Of a DNA stretch of 64,000 bases, positions 19,495 through 31,868 are shown in pieces. Location of the stretch: the NCBI GenBank assembly GCA_963666365.2, contig CAXXNF010000002.1:1984001-2048000 (forward strand), written 5' to 3'. Position 1 is the first letter of the stretch. Every line of letters begins with the position of its first letter. The position numbers and the translations under genes are program-made. The notes under the pieces were generated by a model, which worked only from the letters and a program-made list of their open reading frames with translations, searched no databases and had not been told where the DNA came from. Source of the DNA: Syntrophales bacterium (GTDB taxonomy: Bacteria > Desulfobacterota > Syntrophia > Syntrophales > UBA2210).

Positions 19495-22482
19495 TCAGAA
19501 ATGGAATGCATCCCTGAAGATGAGGTATGCCAGCACTAACCCAAAAAGCGTAGCGGCGATTCCCATAATGCCGGCAAGCAGGCGAGTCCTCACGCTGGGC
19601 GCCCTGCGTATCAGCGTTTCCAGGCGATTTTCCGCAATGATCCGCTCGTACTCTTCCGGTCGTTCCTCCTTGAGCGCTGCCACACTATACCGTCCGGTAA
19701 AAATATTCGATTCCATGGGGAATTTGTTCGGCACCAGATGATTATGAAAGTAGTGGACCGTGAAAATGAAGACGGCCGCCAGGAACGCTTCCTCTGAGTG
19801 GGCAACCGTGGCCACGTTGATCATCCACCCTGGCAGGATGTAGGAGAACAACTCCGGGAACCAGAGGATAAGACCCGACATACCGATCACGAACATTCCC
19901 CAGAAAACGGCGAAGAAGTCGAACTTCTCCCAGTAGGTCCAGCGCTCGAAGCGAGGCATCTCCCCCCTGTTGAAGAACCATCGGAACATCCCCTTGAGAT
20001 CAAGCCAGTCCTTCAGGTTAAAGAAAAGTGATTCCGGCCCGAAGAGACGTCCCAGCCATCCGCGGACCCTTCCGTTCGGGAAGAGGAACTTCACGCTTCT
20101 CCAGCATGTGTATATAAAGAGCACCCACAACACAGTGGCGGCTGCGCGGTGCCAGAATCCGGCCATCTCAACCCCGCCCAGCATATTGATGAAGAATTTC
20201 GCCGTTACCGTTTCATGGTATTTAAGCGGGAAGCCAGTAATGACAAGCATAAAAAATGAGATCATCAGGAGAAAATGCATGATGCGATCTCGCCAGGAAA
20301 AACGCTGCACATAGGTAGTCATATCCCCTGAACAGGGCTCTTCCCATTCCATCAAGTGCACACCTCTGCCCGTCCATTTCTTCCAATAGGCCTTCCTCCA
20401 CCAGAGGATAGTATGCACCCAGAAAAAGGCAAACACAAAAATAAGAAGTCCGATCATGAATATATTGGTCCAGAACAATGCAGGATTGTGTTCGGGATCG
20501 CTGTAATCCGGATGAGCTTCATACTTGACGAACCGTGCATGAAATCCACTGTGGCATTGTGCGCAGTCCTTCATAAGATCGCTTTCGTGCACAGTTGATC
20601 GAGGATCCGATGAAGGCAGGATATTGTGGCCGTTATGGCAATCGGCACACCCGGCTACCCGCTCGGCAGTTCCCACGTCAAAAACCTTGCCATGAAATGT
20701 TTCGTGATACAAATCGGCCGCCGAAATTGACATGTTGTTGCGCTTTACCAGTTCCTCATCGCCGTGACAGCTGATGCACGCGACTGTGTATGCCTCCTTT
20801 TCCTGCGCGCGGCCTTCCTTGGTTCCCCTGTCATAAAACGGCGTGTCATGAAGCCCGTGACAATCGGCACAGGAAGCCGCATCCTCATTCCCCTTGAGAA
20901 CGGCGTTACCGTGTCCGTTGCGCACATAGCGGTCCTTTTCGTGACAAGCGGTACAGCGGTTGATTACCGCAGTCTTTGTTCCCCCGTCTTCCTTTTTCCG
21001 AACGTGCGCATCGCTATGACAATCAAGACAGGTTTTCCCCGCCTTGAGGGCGTGCATGTCGTTTTCATATTGCAAGGCGATATCCTTATGGCAGCTCGCA
21101 CAGGCGGTAAGACCCGGCTTCTTCTCCTTTTTCATGTGAGCCGCCACGTCATCTATCCCGGTGTGGCAGGTTGTGCAGGCAAGGATGCCGTGGACCGACT
21201 GTGCGAACCTATCGACGTATTGCGCATCGTTGTGACAGGTAGCGCATTGTATGAGGGCTTCCGCGGTTTTCTTTTCCGCCGGTACCGTCTCCCCGCCCTT
21301 CATCTCTTTTGCCATCGCCGGCTTTGCCGCCGCCTCCGTCTTTGCCGGCTTTACCATCGGCGACGGGATGACGAAATCGAACTCGTGGCACTGGTGACAA
21401 AAGTTCTCCGACGGCTTGTGGGCGTGATGGCAGAGATCGCAGTCCAGCTCGGGGCCGTAATGGGAGTTATGCGGATTGGCCTCTTTGACGTCCTTTGTCG
21501 CCTCAACGAGATCTTCGGGCTTATGACAGGTAAGGCAGTGACTCGTGCCCACGAACTTCGGGGGATCGGTCTCGCCGTGACACCCGGCGCAGGAGACCCC
21601 GCCTAAGAGGTGGCTGTGGCTCAGGGGGAGCACGCTGGTCAGCTTCGGATCGTCTTCCTTATGGCAGGCCATGCACTGGGCGAGATCCATCCCCTTCGTG
21701 TCGGGGTGCGTCCCGGGAATCATGGCCTCCTTGTGACAGGCGGCACAGTCTCCACCCCTCGCTGCTGCTGAGGGCGCCGTCTCGGGAGCGGGTGCGATTG
21801 CGGCAATCGTCTTTTCCTCAGAGGCCTTTTCCTGACCGACCGTTACAGCCGCCGGCGCAGTCTTCTTCGATTCTTCACCCTTCGAGGGCTCTTTCGCCGC
21901 AGGCGCCTCTTTCTTCGCGGGCGCTACCATCGGCGACGGGATGACGAAATCGAACTCGTGGCACTGGTGACAAAAGTTCTCCGACGGCTTGTGGGCGTGA
22001 TGGCAGAGATCGCAGTCCAGCTCGGGGCCGTAATGGGAGTTATGCGGATTGGCCTCTTTGACGTCCTTTGTCGCCTCAACGAGATCTTCGGGCTTATGAC
22101 AGGTAAGGCAGTGACTCGTGCCCACGAACTTCGGGGGATCGGTCTCGCCGTGACACCCGGCGCAGGAGACCCCGCCTAAGAGGTGGCTGTGGCTCAGGGG
22201 GAGCACGCTGGTCAGCTTCGGATCGTCTTCCTTATGGCAGGCCATGCACTGGCCGAGATCCATTCCCTTCGTGTCGGGATGCGCCTCGGGCACCATGGTA
22301 TTCCCCTCATGGCACAGTGCACATTCCCCGCCTTTTGCAGTCGGCACTGCTTCGGGTTCCGCCGAGAGTGCAGTCTTTGAATCGGCGCTGCAGAAAATGA
22401 AAAAAAGACACGCAACGAGGAAAGGGATGATGCTTCTGCGGCTCCGGATTGGAAACTCACGCATATGTGGGTTTGGCTTCAT
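19495..22482 (-). CDS. 21-heme cytochrome c fused to a cytochrome b membrane domain (two hexaheme modules plus CbcL-like 9-heme/cyt b part)
   Basis: Signal-like N-terminus, 21 CxxCH counted (6+6+9), Pro/Ala/Lys/Glu linkers, C-terminal TM helices with RIMH, FWHR, WEKFDFFAVFWG, AHSEEA. Confidence 0.9.
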   Translation of the reverse strand: MKPNPHMREFPIRSRRSIIPFLVACLFFIFCSADSKTALSAEPEAVPTAKGGECALCHEGNTMVPEAHPDTKGMDLGQCMACHKEDDPKLTSVLPLSHSHLLGGVSCAGCHGETDPPKFVGTSHCLTCHKPEDLVEATKDVKEANPHNSHYGPELDCDLCHHAHKPSENFCHQCHEFDFVIPSPMVAPAKKEAPAAKEPSKGEESKKTAPAAVTVGQEKASEEKTIAAIAPAPETAPSAAARGGDCAACHKEAMIPGTHPDTKGMDLAQCMACHKEDDPKLTSVLPLSHSHLLGGVSCAGCHGETDPPKFVGTSHCLTCHKPEDLVEATKDVKEANPHNSHYGPELDCDLCHHAHKPSENFCHQCHEFDFVIPSPMVKPAKTEAAAKPAMAKEMKGGETVPAEKKTAEALIQCATCHNDAQYVDRFAQSVHGILACTTCHTGIDDVAAHMKKEKKPGLTACASCHKDIALQYENDMHALKAGKTCLDCHSDAHVRKKEDGGTKTAVINRCTACHEKDRYVRNGHGNAVLKGNEDAASCADCHGLHDTPFYDRGTKEGRAQEKEAYTVACISCHGDEELVKRNNMSISAADLYHETFHGKVFDVGTAERVAGCADCHNGHNILPSSDPRSTVHESDLMKDCAQCHSGFHARFVKYEAHPDYSDPEHNPALFWTNIFMIGLLIFVFAFFWVHTILWWRKAYWKKWTGRGVHLMEWEEPCSGDMTTYVQRFSWRDRIMHFLLMISFFMLVITGFPLKYHETVTAKFFINMLGGVEMAGFWHRAAATVLWVLFIYTCWRSVKFLFPNGRVRGWLGRLFGPESLFFNLKDWLDLKGMFRWFFNRGEMPRFERWTYWEKFDFFAVFWGMFVIGMSGLILWFPELFSYILPGWMINVATVAHSEEAFLAAVFIFTVHYFHNHLVPNKFPMESNIFTGRYSVAALKEERPEEYERIIAENRLETLIRRAPSVRTRLLAGIMGIAATLFGLVLAYLIFRDAFHF
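21352..22252. repeat. 328-bp direct repeat (21352-21679 and 21925-22252), 573-bp period
   Basis: Copies read identical by eye; similarity continues about 30 bp further with mismatches. Confidence 0.92.
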
Positions 22483-22626
22483 ACTTCCCCCTGATCGGAT
22501 TCGGCAGTGCAACTCGCGATACTACCCATATTAAAAACCTACCGGCTGCCGCCGCGTGGTGGCATATGTCCCTCTCCACCCCGCGACGGCTTCGGTTAAC
22601 CACACAATCAGTTGCTCTTCCCGCCG

Positions 22627-24159
22627 TTATACTTTCGCGGCGGCACTCTGGCCGGCAATGCGTCCGAAGACGATGCAATCGAGCACGGCGCAGCTTCCCA
22701 GACGCACGGCGCCGTGGACACCGCCGGTAATCTCACCGGCCGCGTAAAGTCCCGGGATGGGTTTACGATCAAGCCCGATAACCTGCGCCTTCGTATTTAT
22801 CTGAATGCCGCCCATGGTATGATGCACCTTGGGCCAGGCGCGACATCCATAGAACGGAGGCGTTACCATCGGTTTCTGGTCGGTCTGCAGATATCGGCCG
22901 AATTCCTCATCCTTGCCCTGTTTCACATACTTGTTCCACTTGTTTATCGTTTCCTTGACTGTGTCCACCGGAATCTTATATTCGGCGGCCAAGGCCTCGA
23001 TGGTGTCGAACTTCTTCGCCACGCCCTTTGCCAGGATCTTGTCGAGGATGGGAACCCGTTTGACCCCTTCACTGTCTGCAATGGTAATGGCCGGATGTCC
23101 CGTCCTGATAATGGCATCGGCACGGATCTTTCGGTCTGCCAATTCATTGATGAAGCGCTTCCCCGTTTGCGGATCCACCATGACACCATAGACAAAACCG
23201 GCTATGGCGTTGAAGACATAGCCGATGCCCATGCCTTTCTCGTCGGGACTGGTCCAGGGACCGAGCTGTATCCAGGAAATCTGCACGGGCGTCGCGCCTG
23301 ACCTGAGCGCATCCATGAGCACCTCTCCCGTTGCCCCGGGCTGATTGGTGGAATCCACATCGGCCGTCAGCTTCGGATCCTGGATCGTTCTGAAATAGAG
23401 ATCCCTGCCGAAACCGCCAGAGGCGAGCACGAGCCCCTTGTTGGCCTTCAGATATTTTACCGTGCCGGTGCTCTCATCGGGGAAGCGGTAGCCTTCTCTG
23501 ATCTTCAGGCCGGCAACCTTCCCGTCCTTATCCTGGATGATGGACATGACATAGGCCTGCATCCTCACCTCGACACCAAGGCCCTTTACCTTCTCCAGCT
23601 CCTTCATTACGATGGCCGATCCGCTGCTGTTGTAGGTCGAATAGCTGCGGGGGACCGAATGGCCGCCCAGATGGGTTACCCGGTCCTTGTACTTGACGCC
23701 CAGCATCTCCGTCCATTCCGCTGCTTCCCGCGACTTTTCCGCAATCATCCTGGCCAGATCCACATGATTGAGGTAGAGCCCGGCCTTCAACATATCCTTC
23801 AGCAGCAGTTCCGGCGAATCCTTGATCCCTTCCGCCTCCTGCTTCGGTGATCCCGCCACGGCAAAGACGCCGCCGTTGATGATGGAGTTCCCTCCGGGAA
23901 CACGCATTTTCTCAAGAACCACGGTCGAAGCGCCCGCCTGCTTCGCCTCGATGGCCGCAGCCAGACCGGCGAACCCGCTGCCGACCACCACCACATCGAA
24001 CTCCTCGTCCCATTTGGCGGGCATGTCGGCGCCATAGGCCTTAAGAGGACCGGCAAGCAGGGAACCGGCTGCCACACCGGCCAGCGCGGCGCCACCTGTG
24101 GTCTTCATGAACCCTCTTCGCGTCAAACCCTCAGCTACATTGTTTTTTTCATCTTTCAT
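22627..24159 (-). CDS. Tat-exported flavocytochrome c flavin subunit (fumarate reductase superfamily), copy 2
   Basis: TRRGFMK, VVGSGFAG, GGNSIINGG, IQLGPW, VHHTMGG, GAVRLGSCA; no CxxCH; RBS AAGGAG before ATG 24159. Confidence 0.92.
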   Translation of the reverse strand: MKDEKNNVAEGLTRRGFMKTTGGAALAGVAAGSLLAGPLKAYGADMPAKWDEEFDVVVVGSGFAGLAAAIEAKQAGASTVVLEKMRVPGGNSIINGGVFAVAGSPKQEAEGIKDSPELLLKDMLKAGLYLNHVDLARMIAEKSREAAEWTEMLGVKYKDRVTHLGGHSVPRSYSTYNSSGSAIVMKELEKVKGLGVEVRMQAYVMSIIQDKDGKVAGLKIREGYRFPDESTGTVKYLKANKGLVLASGGFGRDLYFRTIQDPKLTADVDSTNQPGATGEVLMDALRSGATPVQISWIQLGPWTSPDEKGMGIGYVFNAIAGFVYGVMVDPQTGKRFINELADRKIRADAIIRTGHPAITIADSEGVKRVPILDKILAKGVAKKFDTIEALAAEYKIPVDTVKETINKWNKYVKQGKDEEFGRYLQTDQKPMVTPPFYGCRAWPKVHHTMGGIQINTKAQVIGLDRKPIPGLYAAGEITGGVHGAVRLGSCAVLDCIVFGRIAGQSAAAKV

Positions 24160-24198
24160 ACCCAATCTCCTTTGTTTCTATAGTGAACACTTGTATTG

Positions 24199-24226
24199 AT
24201 TGTAAAACAATACCAATGCAAGTCAA
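24199..24226 (-). promoter_or_regulatory. Putative internal sigma70 promoter
   Basis: TTGACT-N16-TACAAT about 40 nt upstream of the start codon. Confidence 0.5.
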
Positions 24227-24456
24227 GGGCGCAGAGCCGAGTATTTTCCCTACTTTAGACGCTGAAAAGACTATTTTTTCACACTCCAAATACTGATAGG
24301 TCCTCTCCATGTGCAGCGATGCCCGCTCATCAGTGCATAGGCAGGGGCAATTCAGGCCCACACTATGCAGGGCCAATGCGATGTGCGGCAAAAAATAATC
24401 CTTTTCCGCCGCATTCCGCATCCTCATTTCAACCCAAGTCCTGTGGCGCGGCTTTT

Positions 24457-26007
24457 TTACAGGGCAGCCGCATTCTTGCCCGCAATACGTCCGAAGACCA
24501 GACAATCCACCACGGCACAACTGCCGAGGCGCACCGCTCCGTGAACGCCGCCGGCCACTTCGCCGGCCGCATAAAGCCCCTTGATCGGAGCACCGTCCAC
24601 ATCGATCACCTCTGCCTTGTCATTGATCTGCACACCGCCCATGGTATGGTGCACCTTCGGCCAGAGTCTGACGGCATAAAAGGGAGAAGTCGCAATCGGT
24701 TTGGCGTCGGGCTGGAGGAATCGTCCGAATTCCTTGTCCATTCCCGTCTTCAGATATGAGTTGTAGTCGTCGACGGTCTTTTTGACAGCCGCAAAGGGTA
24801 TTTCATAGGCCGCGGCCAGTGCCTCGAGGGTATCAAATTTTTTGACGACGCCACGCTCCAGGAGTTTTTTCACTGCACCGGGAGGACCTCCGCACTTTTT
24901 CGATCCCTCTTCGTCGGAGATACCGATCGCCGCATGACCGGTTCTGATGATGGCGTCGGCCCGAATTTTGCGATTTGCAAGCTCACTGATGAAGCGCTTT
25001 CCCGTTGCGGGATCCACCATGACACCGTAGCTGAAAACCGGACCCGTTGCGAAATGGGGCGCCAGCCCGAAGCCCTTTTCGTCAGGACTTGCCCAGGGAC
25101 CGAGCTGAATCCAGGAGGGCTGCACGGGATTCGCGCCAAGCCTGAAAAGCTCCTTGAGCCCTTCGGCGGTGGCGCCCGGCTGATTCGTGGAATTGACCTT
25201 GGCTATGAGCTTTGGATCCTGCGTCATTCTGTAGTGCACGTCCTGAGAAAATCCGCCCGTTGCCATCACAAGACCCTTCTTTGTGCGGATCGTCTTGACA
25301 GCGCCGCTCTTTTCATCGGGAAAGCGATACCCTTCCCGTATCTGGATACCGGCAATACGCCCATCCTTGTCTCTGAATATTCTTTCCAGATAGGCCTGCG
25401 TAACGATGGGCACACCCAGCTCCTTTAGTTTGGCCGCTTCCTTCATGACAATGCCCGAACCGCTGTAGTTCGAAGTGGGGCAGCTTCTAGCCACGGCATG
25501 ACCCCCCATATGGAGAAGCTGCGCCGCTTTTCCGAATTTGACGTCAAGATGCTCCTTGCACCAATTGTATGCGTCCCTGGATTGATAGGCCACCATTTTT
25601 GCCAGCTCGGGGTAGTTCAAGTACAGTCCGGCCTTCATCATGTCTTCCAGCATCAGCTCCGGAGAATCCTTAATCCCTCTCTCATCCTGCATATCGGATC
25701 CGGCCACGGCCATGACGCCACCGTTAATAATTGAATTGCCTCCATTCACGCGCATTTTCTCATAGACCGCAACCGACGCGCCCGCCTCCTTGGCCTCGAT
25801 TGCCGCGGCAAGCCCTGCAAAACCGCTGCCGATGACGGCCACATCGATTTCCTCGTCCCATTTCTGGGGCATCTCGGCGCTGAACGCCTTTGACGGACCG
25901 GCCAGCAATCCACCGGCGGCAACGCCGCCAAGGGCGACAGTGCCCGTTGTTTTGAGGAACCCTCTACGGGTCAAACCCTCATTTTTTGGTAATGTATCTT
26001 TCGCCAT
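24457..26007 (-). CDS. Tat-exported flavocytochrome c flavin subunit, copy 1
   Basis: TRRGFLK, IGSGFAG, IQLGPWASPDEKG, VHHTMGG, GAVRLGSCA; paralog of the neighbour. Confidence 0.92.
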   Translation of the reverse strand: MAKDTLPKNEGLTRRGFLKTTGTVALGGVAAGGLLAGPSKAFSAEMPQKWDEEIDVAVIGSGFAGLAAAIEAKEAGASVAVYEKMRVNGGNSIINGGVMAVAGSDMQDERGIKDSPELMLEDMMKAGLYLNYPELAKMVAYQSRDAYNWCKEHLDVKFGKAAQLLHMGGHAVARSCPTSNYSGSGIVMKEAAKLKELGVPIVTQAYLERIFRDKDGRIAGIQIREGYRFPDEKSGAVKTIRTKKGLVMATGGFSQDVHYRMTQDPKLIAKVNSTNQPGATAEGLKELFRLGANPVQPSWIQLGPWASPDEKGFGLAPHFATGPVFSYGVMVDPATGKRFISELANRKIRADAIIRTGHAAIGISDEEGSKKCGGPPGAVKKLLERGVVKKFDTLEALAAAYEIPFAAVKKTVDDYNSYLKTGMDKEFGRFLQPDAKPIATSPFYAVRLWPKVHHTMGGVQINDKAEVIDVDGAPIKGLYAAGEVAGGVHGAVRLGSCAVVDCLVFGRIAGKNAAAL

Positions 26008-26520: not shown

Positions 26521-27144
26521 TTAATGCCCTTCCTTATTGTCGTACCCAGTAATCATGGCGCTGAAATTTGCAACAACTGTGTGGCCGGTGGTGGCAAGGT
26601 AGATGTGCGCTATAAAAAACAAGCAGAAAATAGCTGCCATAATATAGTGGAACACCGCCACGGTCGCTAATCCACCGACAGACGCCACCAGGGGCTCGAA
26701 AAAGGAGGGATAGAGGTATATGATACCGCTGATCAACAGGAGCGGCATCATGATGAACATAAACATAAAATACGTTGCTTTCTGCAACGGATTAAACTTG
26801 TTGTCTTCCGACGGATTATAGGGATGGGGCCTGTTTTTGAAAATATCATACAGATAAAATCGCGCCTGCACGATCATGCCCGGATGAATATCTTCTTTTC
26901 TCATCACATAATGCGAAATCCTCTTTGAAATCAAATTATAAGCCAACCAGAAAACAAAATCGGCAACGAGCACCCATCCCAACCAGTTATGCAGTGAAAG
27001 CGCATTTGAAAAGCTTCCAAAAATATTAACGCTGTCCGGCCAGTGCATCTGGATACCTGTTAAAATAAGCAATAATATTAAAAGTGCATGAATCCAATGC
27101 CATATGCGCTCGGCGATCGGATGCAGATATATTTTCTCTGACAT
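26521..27144 (-). CDS. Cytochrome b membrane subunit (PhsC/FdnI-like)
   Basis: ERIWHW, LHNW, KFNPLQK, FHY, AHIYLATTG. Confidence 0.9.
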   Translation of the reverse strand: MSEKIYLHPIAERIWHWIHALLILLLILTGIQMHWPDSVNIFGSFSNALSLHNWLGWVLVADFVFWLAYNLISKRISHYVMRKEDIHPGMIVQARFYLYDIFKNRPHPYNPSEDNKFNPLQKATYFMFMFIMMPLLLISGIIYLYPSFFEPLVASVGGLATVAVFHYIMAAIFCLFFIAHIYLATTGHTVVANFSAMITGYDNKEGH

Positions 27145-27148
27145 GTTC

Positions 27149-28912
27149 TTATTTTCTCCTCTTGCCGGTAAATCTCAATGCTCCGTGCACTGCACATCCC
27201 ACAAGCGTAAGAAGCGCCAGCAAAATTACAACGACGTCGAGAGCCGGAATTCTATTGCTGCCCACCACATAATTCCCTTTTTCAATAAGCCCGGCGTTGG
27301 TAAATTTCCAATTGGCCAGCGAATAATCCGGTTTTCCTTCAGCCTCTTTCAAGAGAATCGTGTTGTATGTATGACAAAGCTGACAATCGTCAACGGGAGC
27401 TGCCATTGAAGGATCGTGACATACGAGACAATCGGTTTTTTTCAGGTGAAGCTTCGGCTGTTCCAGCCAGTTATGCCGCACGGATGGAGCGGGCTTTAAC
27501 GTAACGAACACATCTTTGTTTGCATCGATTTCCCACGATTCGGCAGCATCCTTTTCCGTCAGAAACAGTTCATCCTTTCCGTGACAGGAAAGGCACGTTT
27601 CGTTTTGTGGGGTCTTCAGTTGAATGCTATGCGGCGTTGCATATTTCCATGTTTGCACTTTGCCCACTTCAGTCAGGGCGTCCTTCACGTAAAAATCAAA
27701 GAGATCCGGACTTACGGGAATATGTCGAACCGTCACATATTGCTCAGGCCGGTCTTCGCTCATTTTCGGATTCATTCCGATTTTGAAGCCCACCTTTGAC
27801 GGCTTTGTTTTAAAATAGGGAGCACCTGATGCGTCTTTACCCACATGACAACTATAACAGTGTTTATAAGGCATCGCGTGACATACTTGACAACTCACCT
27901 TGTCTTTGTGAATCATATGGCTCGGATGTACACGCTCTTTCGCTTCACTTTCGTCTTGCGCCGCTTCATCTTCAGAACCTGCCAATTTATGACACTTTTC
28001 GCACCTTGACCCGTCTGCAACGTCATATCTGTCAAAGGTCTCATGGCTCATGCCGTTTCCGTGCATTTCATCACCGGAATGGCAATCCATACATGACATA
28101 CATTTATCAATACGGTGCACATCACCCTGCACACCCTTATTCTGGCCGTAGAATTCCTTGCCTACCCTGCTTCCGTGACAGGAGGTGCAATTTGTTTCAA
28201 CAGGAGGAGTTTTCTGAAAAATGTGGCCTTCTACGAATCCGCCTTCGACGGAATTGGGACGGCTTACGTGACATTGACCGCAACTGCTGTGACACTTCAT
28301 ACAGTGCGTTTCCATGGCGCAGTCTATTTTTTCACGTACCGATGGATCCGCATTTGCCCTTAGATAAATTTTGTTTTTAAACGGGGCAAGCGTTACATGC
28401 AGATTTGTTTTGTTTTTTTCTGCAATTTCCGGATGTCCCTCTTCATCGTCTACGAAGTGGCACTCGCCGCACTTCTGCACAGGATCGGGATAGGAAGGAT
28501 CTCTCATCAGACCTTCATGTGCCGTCTCATAATCATCGCTTTCAGGATCGCCACCATGGCACTGTTCACAGGATATCTGCCCATGGACATCATCGTCGAT
28601 GAAATCAGAGTCAACCAGCACTTTTTCGTATGGCTCCAACTGAGCCACAGCTCCGCCTCACCCTTCGCCTTCCGATTCAGCGGACTTTTTCTGCTGAGGA
28701 TTTTTCGCTGCAATCTCTTTTGTAATTCTTACCAGCTCTTTCACACTTGTATGGCATGAGACGCAGCCGCTTTCCTCGGCACTAACCATCTGCCCCGCAC
28801 CAAGAAAAACAACAACAAAGATGGCAGCAACAATAACAAAAAGTTCTGACGTGTACCGCGCACACATTATTTTGTGTGCAGAAACCCCTCTGTAAACAAT
28901 GCGTTCTTTCAT
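27149..28912 (-). CDS. Predicted selenocysteine-containing 13-heme cytochrome c, 587 aa (joins track ORFs 28658..28912 and 27149..28648)
   Basis: TGA 28658-28660 is in frame with the downstream ORF (SEGEG-U-GGAVAQLEPYEK); upstream part gives the signal-like hydrophobic segment and 1 CxxCH, downstream part 12 CxxCH and a C-terminal TM; SECIS-like hairpin follows. Confidence 0.85.
28629..28649 (-). promoter_or_regulatory. SECIS-like hairpin of the multiheme cytochrome
   Basis: UGUGGCUC-AGUUG-GAGCCAUA; loop 16 nt after UGA, G at loop position 2. Confidence 0.75.
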
Positions 28913-29167: not shown

Positions 29168-29614
29168 ATGCGTAATCAGATGGTTTTTAGGAAAGGTCTT
29201 ATCATTTCCATTGCCGTGATTTTAGTGCTCTCATTGTCCGGATATTGTCTGGCGGACAAGACCAGCAAGGATTTTGTAAATGAAGCGAAAAAAACGGTGA
29301 AAGAAATCTCCGTCGCCGATGCAAAGGCAGAAATAGATTCGGGAAAAGTGGCAATAATTCTCGACTGCAGAACGGAGAAGGAGTTTAAAAAAGGACATAT
29401 TCCTAAAGCAATGAATATTCCTCGCGGTCTTCTGGAATTCAAAATTGAAAAGAAAATACCGAAGAAAGACGCCTACATAATTTGTTACTGCGTATCAGGC
29501 GGCCGTTCCTGTCTTGCCTGCAGCACCATGAAAGAGATGGGATATTCAAACTTGAAAAGCATGGCGGGCGGATGGAAGGCATGGGTCAAAGCCGGTTATC
29601 CGATAGAGGAATAA
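29168..29614 (+). CDS. Exported single-domain rhodanese/sulfurtransferase
   Basis: Signal peptide, LDCRT..EF..GHIP.A.NIPRG.LE, active loop CVSGGR, GGWKAW; RBS GGAGG. Confidence 0.9.
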   Translation: MRNQMVFRKGLIISIAVILVLSLSGYCLADKTSKDFVNEAKKTVKEISVADAKAEIDSGKVAIILDCRTEKEFKKGHIPKAMNIPRGLLEFKIEKKIPKKDAYIICYCVSGGRSCLACSTMKEMGYSNLKSMAGGWKAWVKAGYPIEE

Positions 29615-29703: not shown

Positions 29704-30546
29704 TTACATGTAACTGTGCAAACCCGAAAGTATGTAATTTACCCCGAGATAAGTAAAAATCACGGCAAAAAAACCGAGAATGGCAATACAGGCCATGATG
29801 GTTCCCTTCCATCCCTTTACCAGGCGGGCGTGGAGATAGGCGCCGTAAATCATCCAGGTGATGAGCGACCAGGTCTCTTTCGGATCCCACCCCCAATACC
29901 TTCCCCAGGCAGTATCGGCCCAGGCTGCACCAGTAATTATTCCCAGACTCAGTAAAACAAAACCGATTGAGGTTATTCGATAGGCCAGATCGTCCCACAT
30001 CGCGGCATCCGCGAGAAGTGCCGTAATTCTCGGTCCTCCCTTCACTCTGATCAAATAGAGTATGCTGGTGATGAACGAAAGAGCAAAACAGGCATAGGCA
30101 AGAAAGGAACTCACCACGTGACTGATGAGCCAATTACTTCTTAATGCGGGTATAAGAGGCTGAATTTCCGTGCTCACACTGCCGGAAAGCGACGCATAGG
30201 CCGGCAGCAAAAAGGCCAGGAAGGATGCCAGTATTCCGATACTTTCATTACCGTAACGTCTCCACATTATCAGCAATACGAGCATTACTGACCAGGAAAA
30301 AAAGACGAGCGATTCGTAGAGATTGGAAAGAGGTGCATGCCCGATTTCCAGTTGATACGAAATTGCCCAGCGCAGAATAATCGCAAACGTTTCTATGGAA
30401 AATCCGCTTGCCACCAGGATCAGTGCCAATACACGGATGACCTTTTTTTTAAAAACAAAGGCAGTAAAGAAGAAAAGAGTTCCAAAAAAATAAAGAAATG
30501 TTGCAATACTTACAAAAAATGTATCGTTCATACCAGTATCAATCAT
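29704..30546 (-). CDS. System II cytochrome c synthase subunit (CcsA/ResC family)
   Basis: GHAPLSNLYESL, WLISHV, WWD domain WADTAWGRYWGWDPKETW, C-terminal LHSY. Confidence 0.95.
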   Translation of the reverse strand: MIDTGMNDTFFVSIATFLYFFGTLFFFTAFVFKKKVIRVLALILVASGFSIETFAIILRWAISYQLEIGHAPLSNLYESLVFFSWSVMLVLLIMWRRYGNESIGILASFLAFLLPAYASLSGSVSTEIQPLIPALRSNWLISHVVSSFLAYACFALSFITSILYLIRVKGGPRITALLADAAMWDDLAYRITSIGFVLLSLGIITGAAWADTAWGRYWGWDPKETWSLITWMIYGAYLHARLVKGWKGTIMACIAILGFFAVIFTYLGVNYILSGLHSYM

Positions 30547-31868
30547 TGTTGTAGTTTATTAAGATGCTTTGCAAGAATTTTCTCGAAGTTGCCGTCGCGT
30601 TTTCTGTCTGTTTTCGCTGCAACTTCAACATATGATCCTTCGCCGGACGGCGTAATCCGTATCGACAGACACCGGTGCGACCCAAAGAGCACAATTACAA
30701 AACCGATGAGAATCAGGGCAAACCCACTCCATACCACGGGCATTCCCGGATTTTTGCTTATCTGTATGCCCGTGTAGTAGCGAGCGGTAAAATCTTCCAG
30801 TGCAAAGATATACTCTCCCCGTTCTACTTCCTGAGACCGGTGCCTCTGAAATGGTATCCAGAAAATATCGTGACTCATCCCCGGCACAAGCATCACACCC
30901 AATACTGCCGCCCCCTGTCCTTGAAAATCCGGCACAAACCGTGCAACGGCAAAGGAAGAGTCGCTTCCCGGCAATGGCACTTTTCGCATCCGATGGAGTG
31001 TAAGCACCGATCTGGTGCCGCTTTTCTTTTCCGTAACGGCGACTTTGAAATCGGAAGCATCGGCCATTCCATATGAAGCCTGACATAGTTTGTATCCCCG
31101 AAAGACAATGGGATGATTTACTCGTATCGATTCCTCCGCCACAGACGCACCCTCATCAATGATCGTTACATCGGATCGGTATTCTTTCGGCATACCACTG
31201 TCGTAAAATTCAACGGAAAAACGATTGCATCGTACCGAAAAGGGCAGCGTCATTTCTTTGGTTCCCGGAGAAACAAGAACCTTGCTCGAGGTTTCTCCCT
31301 CGACAATCGTCATTTGGCCTTCAAAACCGCCGACTGCACCTATGAGACCGCCGGCCAGAATTATCAGAATGCTCACATGAACGAACAGGATACCAAGCCG
31401 CGCATAGGCACCTTTTTCCGCATAAAGGTATCGCACGTCACGCTCACCTTTCACATTCGGCTTCCCGACAAGCGCTTTTACCAACATTCGCAGATTGCCT
31501 TCTATGCGTTCCCCTCTATCGTGCATTTCGAACTTATGTTGTATCGGCCACCCGCAAAAGGCCGCATCGCTCTTATCACCCCGCTTCCGAAACAGCGGGG
31601 CGCAAATTCCCGGAAGCGTTTTCGCCGTACAGGCAATGAGGTTAACTGCCAAAAGCGCCAGGAGAACGGTGAACCACCAGGAATGGTACATGTCTGAAAT
31701 ATCGAAAAACTCAATAAGAGAAACCGTACCCGGTCCATAGACATTCTCATAGTGGTCCTTTGGGAGCCCCTGTGCTACCAAAGTGCCGAACACGGAGGTT
31801 GCGGCCAGCGCAAAAAAAAGGAATATGGTAAGTTTTGCCGAAGCAAGTCCCTTGATAACTTTTTTCAT
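30543..31868 (-). CDS. System II cytochrome c biogenesis protein (ResB/Ccs1 family)
   Basis: GTLVAQ, DMYHSWWF, VHVS, IRVNHP, YTGIQISKNPG. Confidence 0.93.
   Translation of the reverse strand: MKKVIKGLASAKLTIFLFFALAATSVFGTLVAQGLPKDHYENVYGPGTVSLIEFFDISDMYHSWWFTVLLALLAVNLIACTAKTLPGICAPLFRKRGDKSDAAFCGWPIQHKFEMHDRGERIEGNLRMLVKALVGKPNVKGERDVRYLYAEKGAYARLGILFVHVSILIILAGGLIGAVGGFEGQMTIVEGETSSKVLVSPGTKEMTLPFSVRCNRFSVEFYDSGMPKEYRSDVTIIDEGASVAEESIRVNHPIVFRGYKLCQASYGMADASDFKVAVTEKKSGTRSVLTLHRMRKVPLPGSDSSFAVARFVPDFQGQGAAVLGVMLVPGMSHDIFWIPFQRHRSQEVERGEYIFALEDFTARYYTGIQISKNPGMPVVWSGFALILIGFVIVLFGSHRCLSIRITPSGEGSYVEVAAKTDRKRDGNFEKILAKHLNKLQQ

Follow-up and report, generated by a model that had tools for sequence, protein, structure and literature searches.

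A selenocysteine codon between two reading frames

Two open reading frames lie one after the other on the minus strand of the Syntrophales DNA analysed here, a stretch of 64,000 nt referred to as the window, and are separated by a TGA. The question raised by this locus is whether the TGA ends a short protein or encodes selenocysteine (Sec) within a long one, and what the long protein would do. The upstream frame (28912–28658) encodes 84 aa and ends with the TGA; the downstream frame (28648–27149) starts with GTG and encodes 499 aa. They are in frame across the TGA and three further codons, as described in the initial annotation, which did not give the strand. Translation of the TGA as Sec (U) produces a c-type cytochrome of 587 residues (27149..28912), with U85 in the sequence GEG-U-GG and 13 CxxCH motifs. 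Homologues align across the TGA (28658..28660), and the codon reads identically in contigs of three sequencing runs from two samples and two studies, X1 perhaps being the source of the present DNA.

A signal-peptide-like leader (residues 1–45, 28778..28912), with a putative cleavage site and Met16 as an alternative start, and the heme 1 motif (C50–H54, 28751..28765), invariant in 29 of 29 homologues, are upstream of the UGA. Twelve hemes and a C-terminal hydrophobic membrane helix are downstream of it. The initial annotation was correct that a signal-like segment is present only in the upstream frame, that the downstream heme-containing frame has no export signal, that there are 13 hemes and that Sec is about 30 residues past the first CxxCH; the His of this motif is followed 31 residues later by U85. 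A hydrophobic leader precedes heme 1 in 28 homologues inspected by eye. The Sec peptide that had been proposed for detection, GEGUGGAVAQLEPYEK, is too short at its N-terminus. Trypsin would cleave after the KK just upstream, therefore the expected tryptic peptide is five residues longer at that end.

Conservation of the UGA codon

Within the phylum sample the family is present in 30 of 301 genomes, including the source genome itself, and the codon aligned to U85 is TGA in 29 of these 30 loci; the 30th starts past this position, at the edge of its contig. An alignment-based scan of GTDB confirmed at least 585 places among 594 stretches. Of the best 80 GTDB loci kept, 79 have TGA at this position and the other has no readable bases there. 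These two sets overlap and their counts are therefore not summed. The TGA is conserved over 31–61% protein identity and in several phyla. The initial annotation suggested a search for homologues with Cys or TGA aligned to the Sec codon, and both were found.

In 55 representatives with an N-terminal heme, the Sec column holds Cys 13 times, Trp 5 times, Tyr 4 times, some other residue 9 times and a gap 24 times, although a few of these rows, some with Cys among them, are misaligned, and these are protein records in which the codons are not seen. Cys is the commonest residue in this column among those full-length homologues having a residue there (13 of the 55). The Trp of five protein records may be encoded by TGG, or by TGA under another genetic code. 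A second alignment adds His and Met forms: P0124, P0126 and P0142 have His in place of Sec, P0157, P0171 and P0149 have Tyr, P0131 has Met, and R249, discussed below, is mostly lost in these.

The genome carries selA, selB and selD, all above cut-offs, together with tRNA-Sec (selC). Co-occurrence with selA was considered as additional support and rejected as uninformative, because selA is found in 27 of 29 carriers and in 138 of 151 genomes of the phylum. A 98-nt ARAGORN 'tRNA-His (atg)' at G000:C2 790224–790321 lies inside a GTPase-like gene (790144–790836) and is likely to be a false call.

The conserved TGA, the covarying SECIS described below, the Cys in full-length homologues and the genomic Sec machinery strongly support read-through, and it is hardly in doubt, on these comparisons, that the UGA is decoded as Sec. 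Were the UGA instead a true stop, this would be a broken gene or a pair of genes for two separate proteins. The GTG three codons after the TGA offers a start for the second of these, and gene callers do split the gene. Against this, none of the 29 and 79 loci that can be scored has a TAA, TAG or frame shift across the junction, any of which would have pointed to a true stop, the Cys homologues are uninterrupted, the SECIS covaries and the downstream part lacks an export signal, making a stop very improbable. The two annotated reading frames are almost certainly, on the sequence comparisons, one gene for an exported, membrane-anchored 13-heme Sec cytochrome.

The SECIS hairpin

A SECIS-type hairpin of eight pairs is present on the minus strand at 28649–28629, with the loop AGUUG and a G at loop position 2, as the initial annotation reported. 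The distance of 16 nt from the UGA that was given there is that of the loop; the stem begins 8 nt after the UGA. The folding energy of the hairpin taken alone is within chance (z of −0.9 to −2.0 in four windows), therefore the case for a SECIS rests on conservation. Here the SECIS prediction is borne out by covariation and by frozen synonymous codons. In the 19 loci of the type found in the window, 86.8% of the cells are paired and 15 cells, affecting four pairs, are changed on both sides, counts which may be inflated by relatedness of the loci. None of 500 shuffles gave as high a covariation score for these 19 loci, and slid controls scored lower. The swap can be seen in the protein as APLEP versus EPLAP.

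Within the hairpin, three codons show no synonymous variation (10 of 10, 16 of 16 and 16 of 16), against none of 94 other comparable columns reaching 0.9 or above in 17 loci. Of 78 distinct hairpins in the larger set, 73–78 keep each of the five loop-proximal pairs, with L105 and L109, which have one extra codon, counted out of register. A second SECIS clade of 10 loci has 90% pairing and no covariation.

Core structure and the position of Sec

For the mature chain, the better AlphaFold2 model was made with an alignment of 128 rows and has a mean pLDDT of 87, and about 90 around U85. With a shallow alignment the mean is 62.9 and the Sec loop is below 50. The two models thus differ on the flexible arm that the initial annotation proposed for Sec. 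In the VIA structure comparison, octaheme tetrathionate reductase (OTR; 1SP3) is the sole match, with a Z of 8.4 and an rmsd of 4.2 over 256 aligned residues, which is barely above the stated VIA background of Z 7–8; the next row has a Z of 4.2. MccSep is not among the VIA rows. The family profile searched against the PDB also places 1SP3 first (E 6.4e-9), with MccSep (9WT8) at E 0.068. Foldseek against the PDB returned no match at E 0.001, and a single-sequence PDB search returned weak heme-motif matches only. Judged by the predicted fold and the profile, the core of the family (about residues 107–481 with hemes 2–11, 27470..28594) is a remote relative of OTR and is not related to MccSep/ExtKL. 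In our own mapping, hemes 3–9 and 11 would correspond in order to the eight hemes of OTR, and heme 4 (C204–H208) to OTR heme II.

Nine non-motif His are invariant for 11 core hemes. A tenth, H397, is kept in 72 of 79 loci of the larger set but in 17 of 29 of the wider set, therefore one or two core hemes have no conserved His. U85 is the sole invariant Cys or Sec outside the heme motifs. OTR heme II has Lys56 as a ligand (PMC3769277), and neither Lys56 nor Cys64 of OTR has a conserved counterpart in the family alignment.

The presence of R249 follows the residue in the loop. It is found in 29 of 29 Sec forms, 12 of 16 forms with Cys in this arm, 7 of 11 with Trp, and 3 of 21 with neither. These counts place P0021 in the Cys group, although its residue there is Trp, and omit P0194 and P0179. 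In the 21 forms with neither Cys nor Trp, R185 is kept in 19 and D264 in 18, with G247 in 8 and R396 in 11. In reading the co-loss of R249, kinship and divergence are confounders (mean identity 0.36 versus 0.40). R249 is also present in 79 of 79 loci of the GTDB set, which is partly by construction as one search pattern contains R249, and the count of 29 of 29 is therefore preferred. R249 aligns with the stretch of OTR around Asp150–Lys153, which presumably lines the distal pocket of heme II.

The suggestion in the initial annotation that Sec is a heme ligand or a catalytic nucleophile is plausible from these alignments. That one or two hemes have no conserved His, that U85 is the only conserved free chalcogen and that Cys, His, Tyr and Met occur in the loop of homologues suggests that Sec85 might be the axial ligand of a c-type heme. 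This would be a natural His/Sec catalytic heme, equivalent in selenium to the His/Cys hemes found in TsdA and SoxA, and is a tentative reading. If true, the His/Sec heme would define a molybdenum-free sulfur-respiration module shared by several anaerobic phyla and, in the window, coupled directly to the quinone pool, and the family is a place to seek direct Se–Fe heme ligation.

The rhodanese partner and other neighbouring genes

By Pfam, 18 of 20 wide loci have a gene for an exported rhodanese directly after the cytochrome gene. In the other two the ORF caller took the wrong frame, and what looks like a tandem rhodanese is present by eye. Rhodanese genes are found in 68 of 79 loci of the larger set: in 51 the rhodanese gene immediately follows that of the cytochrome, in 9 it precedes it on the same strand, in 4 the two are fused, and in 4 it is elsewhere. 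The fusions, of the Sec cytochrome with a C-terminal tandem rhodanese, are in L121, L125, L135 and L139. The 11 loci without a rhodanese include 6 having less than 700 nt of 3' flank and five with more than 1.4 kb. In the window, an exported single-domain rhodanese that retains the active-site Cys is encoded on the plus strand at 29168..29614, the longest ORF starting from 29090. It is oriented divergently to the Sec cytochrome gene and is not co-transcribed with it. Its protein is 56–68% identical to seven partner rhodaneses and belongs to the same subfamily as the gene following the soluble homologues. Downstream in L055 and L056 are two tandem rhodaneses, the second without the usual active-site Cys, and then a DUF3034 gene. 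At G000:C2 600060–604422 three consecutive genes encode a 7-heme protein, a rhodanese and a 9-heme protein; a similar trio is downstream of the second-clade homologues L059 and L061.

Beyond the rhodanese, the system II heme attachment pair ccsB and resB (29704..31868, minus strand) is regarded as accessory. These genes also adjoin the anchored form of the cytochrome in L062, L065 and L086 (by eye). No dsrA, aprA, ExtKL or NrfD/PsrC was found in this genome, which is 94% complete. A promoter scan at the locus gave results at chance level.

The membrane tail and cytochrome b

The C-terminal module of the window protein (27152..27487) has two hemes, a YVVGSNR motif and the membrane helix, and appears to be CbcA-like. 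The match is restricted to the last 118 residues of the Sec cytochrome. In 4 of 200 other genomes the same tail was found apart from the Sec core, as part of unrelated heptaheme–cytochrome b fusions. The likeness to CbcA is reached through one of these: the tail matches the L144 fusion at E 2e-16, and the heme part of L144 matches PDB 28PB at E 4.5e-10, with no direct match of the tail to 28PB. This PDB entry is probably CbcA, a review printing the code as '2BPB'.

A cytochrome b gene (PF01292, PhsC-like; 26521..27144, minus strand) starts 4 nt after the Sec cytochrome gene. A cytochrome b directly follows the anchored form in all seven loci inspected by eye. That of the window scores best with PhsC, at 162.5 bits, which is below the NCBIfam cut-off of 204. 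The adjacent cytochrome b is, from its position and domain, the probable quinol-side partner. In P0030 and P0032 the core and cytochrome b are fused in one chain.

Further downstream on the minus strand (19495–26007) are two tandem Tat-type flavocytochrome c flavoproteins (TIGR01813) and then a 1005-aa protein with 21 CxxCH motifs, in which a tetraheme-like region is duplicated and the C-terminal part is a cytochrome b. These genes were considered as parts of the system and rejected: there is a 514-nt gap with terminator-like sites, and they are beside none of the seven anchored homologues, three of which have less than 1 kb of sequence beyond cytochrome b. This module is probably a separate quinol-fed reductase.

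A proposed function and its alternatives

The conserved UGA with its SECIS, the export signal, the hemes, the OTR-related core, the CbcA-like tail, the cytochrome b and the rhodanese partner are all read from the sequences. From these we infer the substrate, the direction of the reaction and the position of Sec, with the placement of U85 at heme 4 suggested by the alignment and by the co-loss of R249. The gene most probably encodes the catalytic subunit of a quinol-fed, molybdenum-free reductase that would act in the periplasm on sulfane sulfur brought by the rhodanese, with Sec placed in a heme pocket of the OTR type, and this mechanism as a whole is considered reasonably probable. SelB would read the UGA as Sec, generating a single exported chain to which CcsBA would attach the hemes. 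The cytochrome b would oxidise menaquinol and pass electrons through the two tail hemes to the heme chain of the core. The rhodanese Cys would deliver sulfane sulfur, from polysulfide, S0 or thiosulfate, to the cytochrome, where the Sec loop may close the distal pocket of heme 4, the equivalent of the OTR active heme, beside Arg249. The selenolate would then take the sulfur as a Se–S adduct, to be reduced by the heme chain to sulfide. A counterpoint to the sulfur model is that rhodaneses serve many roles.

The same enzyme could work in the opposite direction, oxidising sulfide or sulfane sulfur, for example in disproportionation or detoxification, and reducing quinone, with the rhodanese removing the product. 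Direction is not readable from gene content, dsrA is above the cut-off in 12 of the 29 other carriers, and TsdA and SoxAX, with His/Cys hemes, act oxidatively (PMC13510729). However, OTR and MccSep are reductases, the tail resembles CbcBA, which is described as drawing electrons from the menaquinone pool (PMC13591261), and formate dehydrogenase-like genes, a possible source of electrons, adjoin the locus in L044, L062 and L065 (by eye). An oxidative role is judged unlikely. The substrate could also be another small anion, such as selenite, tellurite, nitrite or hydroxylamine, with the rhodanese as a selenium or sulfur carrier or a bystander. Enzymes of the OTR type are promiscuous and MccSep reduces selenite (PMC13510729), and the Sec cytochrome gene is about 1.3–1.5 kb from selA at G001:C83 and G183:C32. 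Against this, the link to rhodanese is near-universal, with some fusions, and Lys56 of OTR is not conserved; a non-sulfur substrate is given little weight.

Sec might otherwise have no catalytic part, its only role being to lower the potential of a heme strongly by axial ligation, in a protein that only transfers electrons. The shortfall of nine invariant non-motif His against 11 core hemes would fit this, as would the His, Tyr and Met in the loop of some homologues, all of which are possible heme ligands. The OTR-type catalytic fold, the invariant Arg and Glu by the pocket, the co-loss of R249 and the conserved sulfurtransferase partner speak against a cytochrome of this kind, which is similarly improbable. 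The reductase of rhodanese-carried sulfur, if correct, makes this a second, independently evolved family of Sec-heme enzymes, on an OTR-type scaffold unrelated to MccSep, and a candidate for periplasmic sulfur reduction in anaerobes without Psr and MccSep.

Comparison with known systems

In the polysulfide and thiosulfate reductases Psr/Phs, a catalytic subunit in the periplasm works with a membrane subunit that oxidises quinol and with the rhodanese Sud as carrier of the sulfur. The layout of the present locus follows the same logic without a molybdenum subunit; catalysis would be heme- and Sec-based.

MccSep/ExtKL (G. sulfurreducens GSU2937–2936; NF040886; 9WT8) is likewise a periplasmic multiheme cytochrome with one UGA-encoded Sec that has been split by annotators, and its cluster includes a rhodanese gene (PMC5877670). 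ExtKL is also the subject of PMC1914089. MccSep is a polysulfide reductase that also reduces selenite; it has five hemes, Sec325 and a Cys-ligated heme, and its Sec is not a heme ligand (PMC13510729). Whereas MccSep has its Sec in a C-terminal Ig-like domain, the present family has 11–13 hemes with Sec between hemes 1 and 2. The heme-ligating Cys of MccSep has no counterpart in the family, which has no other conserved free Cys. NF040886 matches none of 29 members at E 0.1 and has no match in the genome. The reading as a rare kind of protein, distinct from ExtKL, is supported. By analogy, the chemistry is plausibly the same as that of MccSep.

OTR of Shewanella oneidensis (1SP3; TIGR04315) is the only clear relative by both structure and profile, but the present family has three more hemes, the Sec loop and a rhodanese partner, and lacks equivalents of Lys56 and Cys64. 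TIGR04315 does not match the window protein and matches 3 of 29 members weakly, with a best E of 1.4e-8. CbcBA, the quinol:cytochrome c oxidoreductase of G. sulfurreducens, similarly combines a multiheme cytochrome anchored by a C-terminal helix with an adjacent cytochrome b (PMC13591261). In contrast to the window protein, in which the last two hemes and the helix alone are CbcA-like, via L144, CbcA lacks both Sec and a catalytic core, and there is no full-length homology to the heptaheme protein.

No description of the family was found in the literature searched, mostly outside subscription journals. It is not listed in the table of 119 families of the 2026 selenoprotein catalogue (PMC13188914), where the cytochrome or CXXCH selenoproteins are ExtKL, GSU2204 and one GenBank-annotated Sec TIGR04315 octaheme protein, WP_331457571.1. 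The words 'cytochrome' and 'heme' are absent from the main text of PMC12013277 and from the passages of PMC13326102 that were searched. Family-like sequences are present in the supplementary FASTA of PMC11492766, such as WP_072909939.1, which starts just past the UGA, and the text of that paper does not contain 'selenocysteine'. Its 11-heme Desulfuromusa cluster may belong to the present family. The family is apparently widespread and undescribed, probably working like MccSep and not a member of either the MccSep or the OTR families.

Distribution and forms of the family

A protein search gives 2450 matches at E ≤1e-10. Among the 120 matches listed, most are of about 495 or 370 residues, covering 85% or about 66% of the query. 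These database homologues begin after the UGA, therefore the signal peptide is missing and the records are truncated 'hypothetical' proteins. The family is in this way routinely mis-annotated. At E ≤1e-30 there are 214 clusters at 50% identity. No NCBIfam model names the family; none is above its cut-off, and NF041027 (GSU2204) is not among the matches. A single-sequence pattern scan of GTDB genomes gave no match, and the ESM Atlas returned generic cluster names only, with no model.

Among the GTDB matches listed, the carriers include records from Desulfobacterota, Chloroflexota, Spirochaetota and Calditrichaceae. Desulfosarcina widdelii PP31 and Dethiosulfatarculus sandiegensis SPR are cultured carriers. 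Close relatives among the matches listed are MAGs of Syntrophaceae/Syntrophales, a group that is not known to respire sulfur, which counts against the sulfur model.

The common form of the protein has the leader, heme 1, the Sec loop and ten further hemes, and 67 of 79 loci have these 11 motifs with no membrane tail. Six of 79 have 13 motifs and the tail. Going by these loci, the anchored form with 13 hemes is the less common variant in a family whose members are mostly soluble with 11. The initial annotation did not notice this, nor the relationship of the core to OTR or the conserved rhodanese partner. The anchored form is one group (support 99) inside the soluble Sec forms and the non-Sec forms are scattered in a tree that is a quick version only, from which no order of events is claimed. 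In three loci (L052, L053 and L054) the protein is a lipoprotein whose last heme motif is CxxxCH, and the gene is surrounded by others for multiheme proteins; that of L052 adjoins an MtrB/PioB-like porin.
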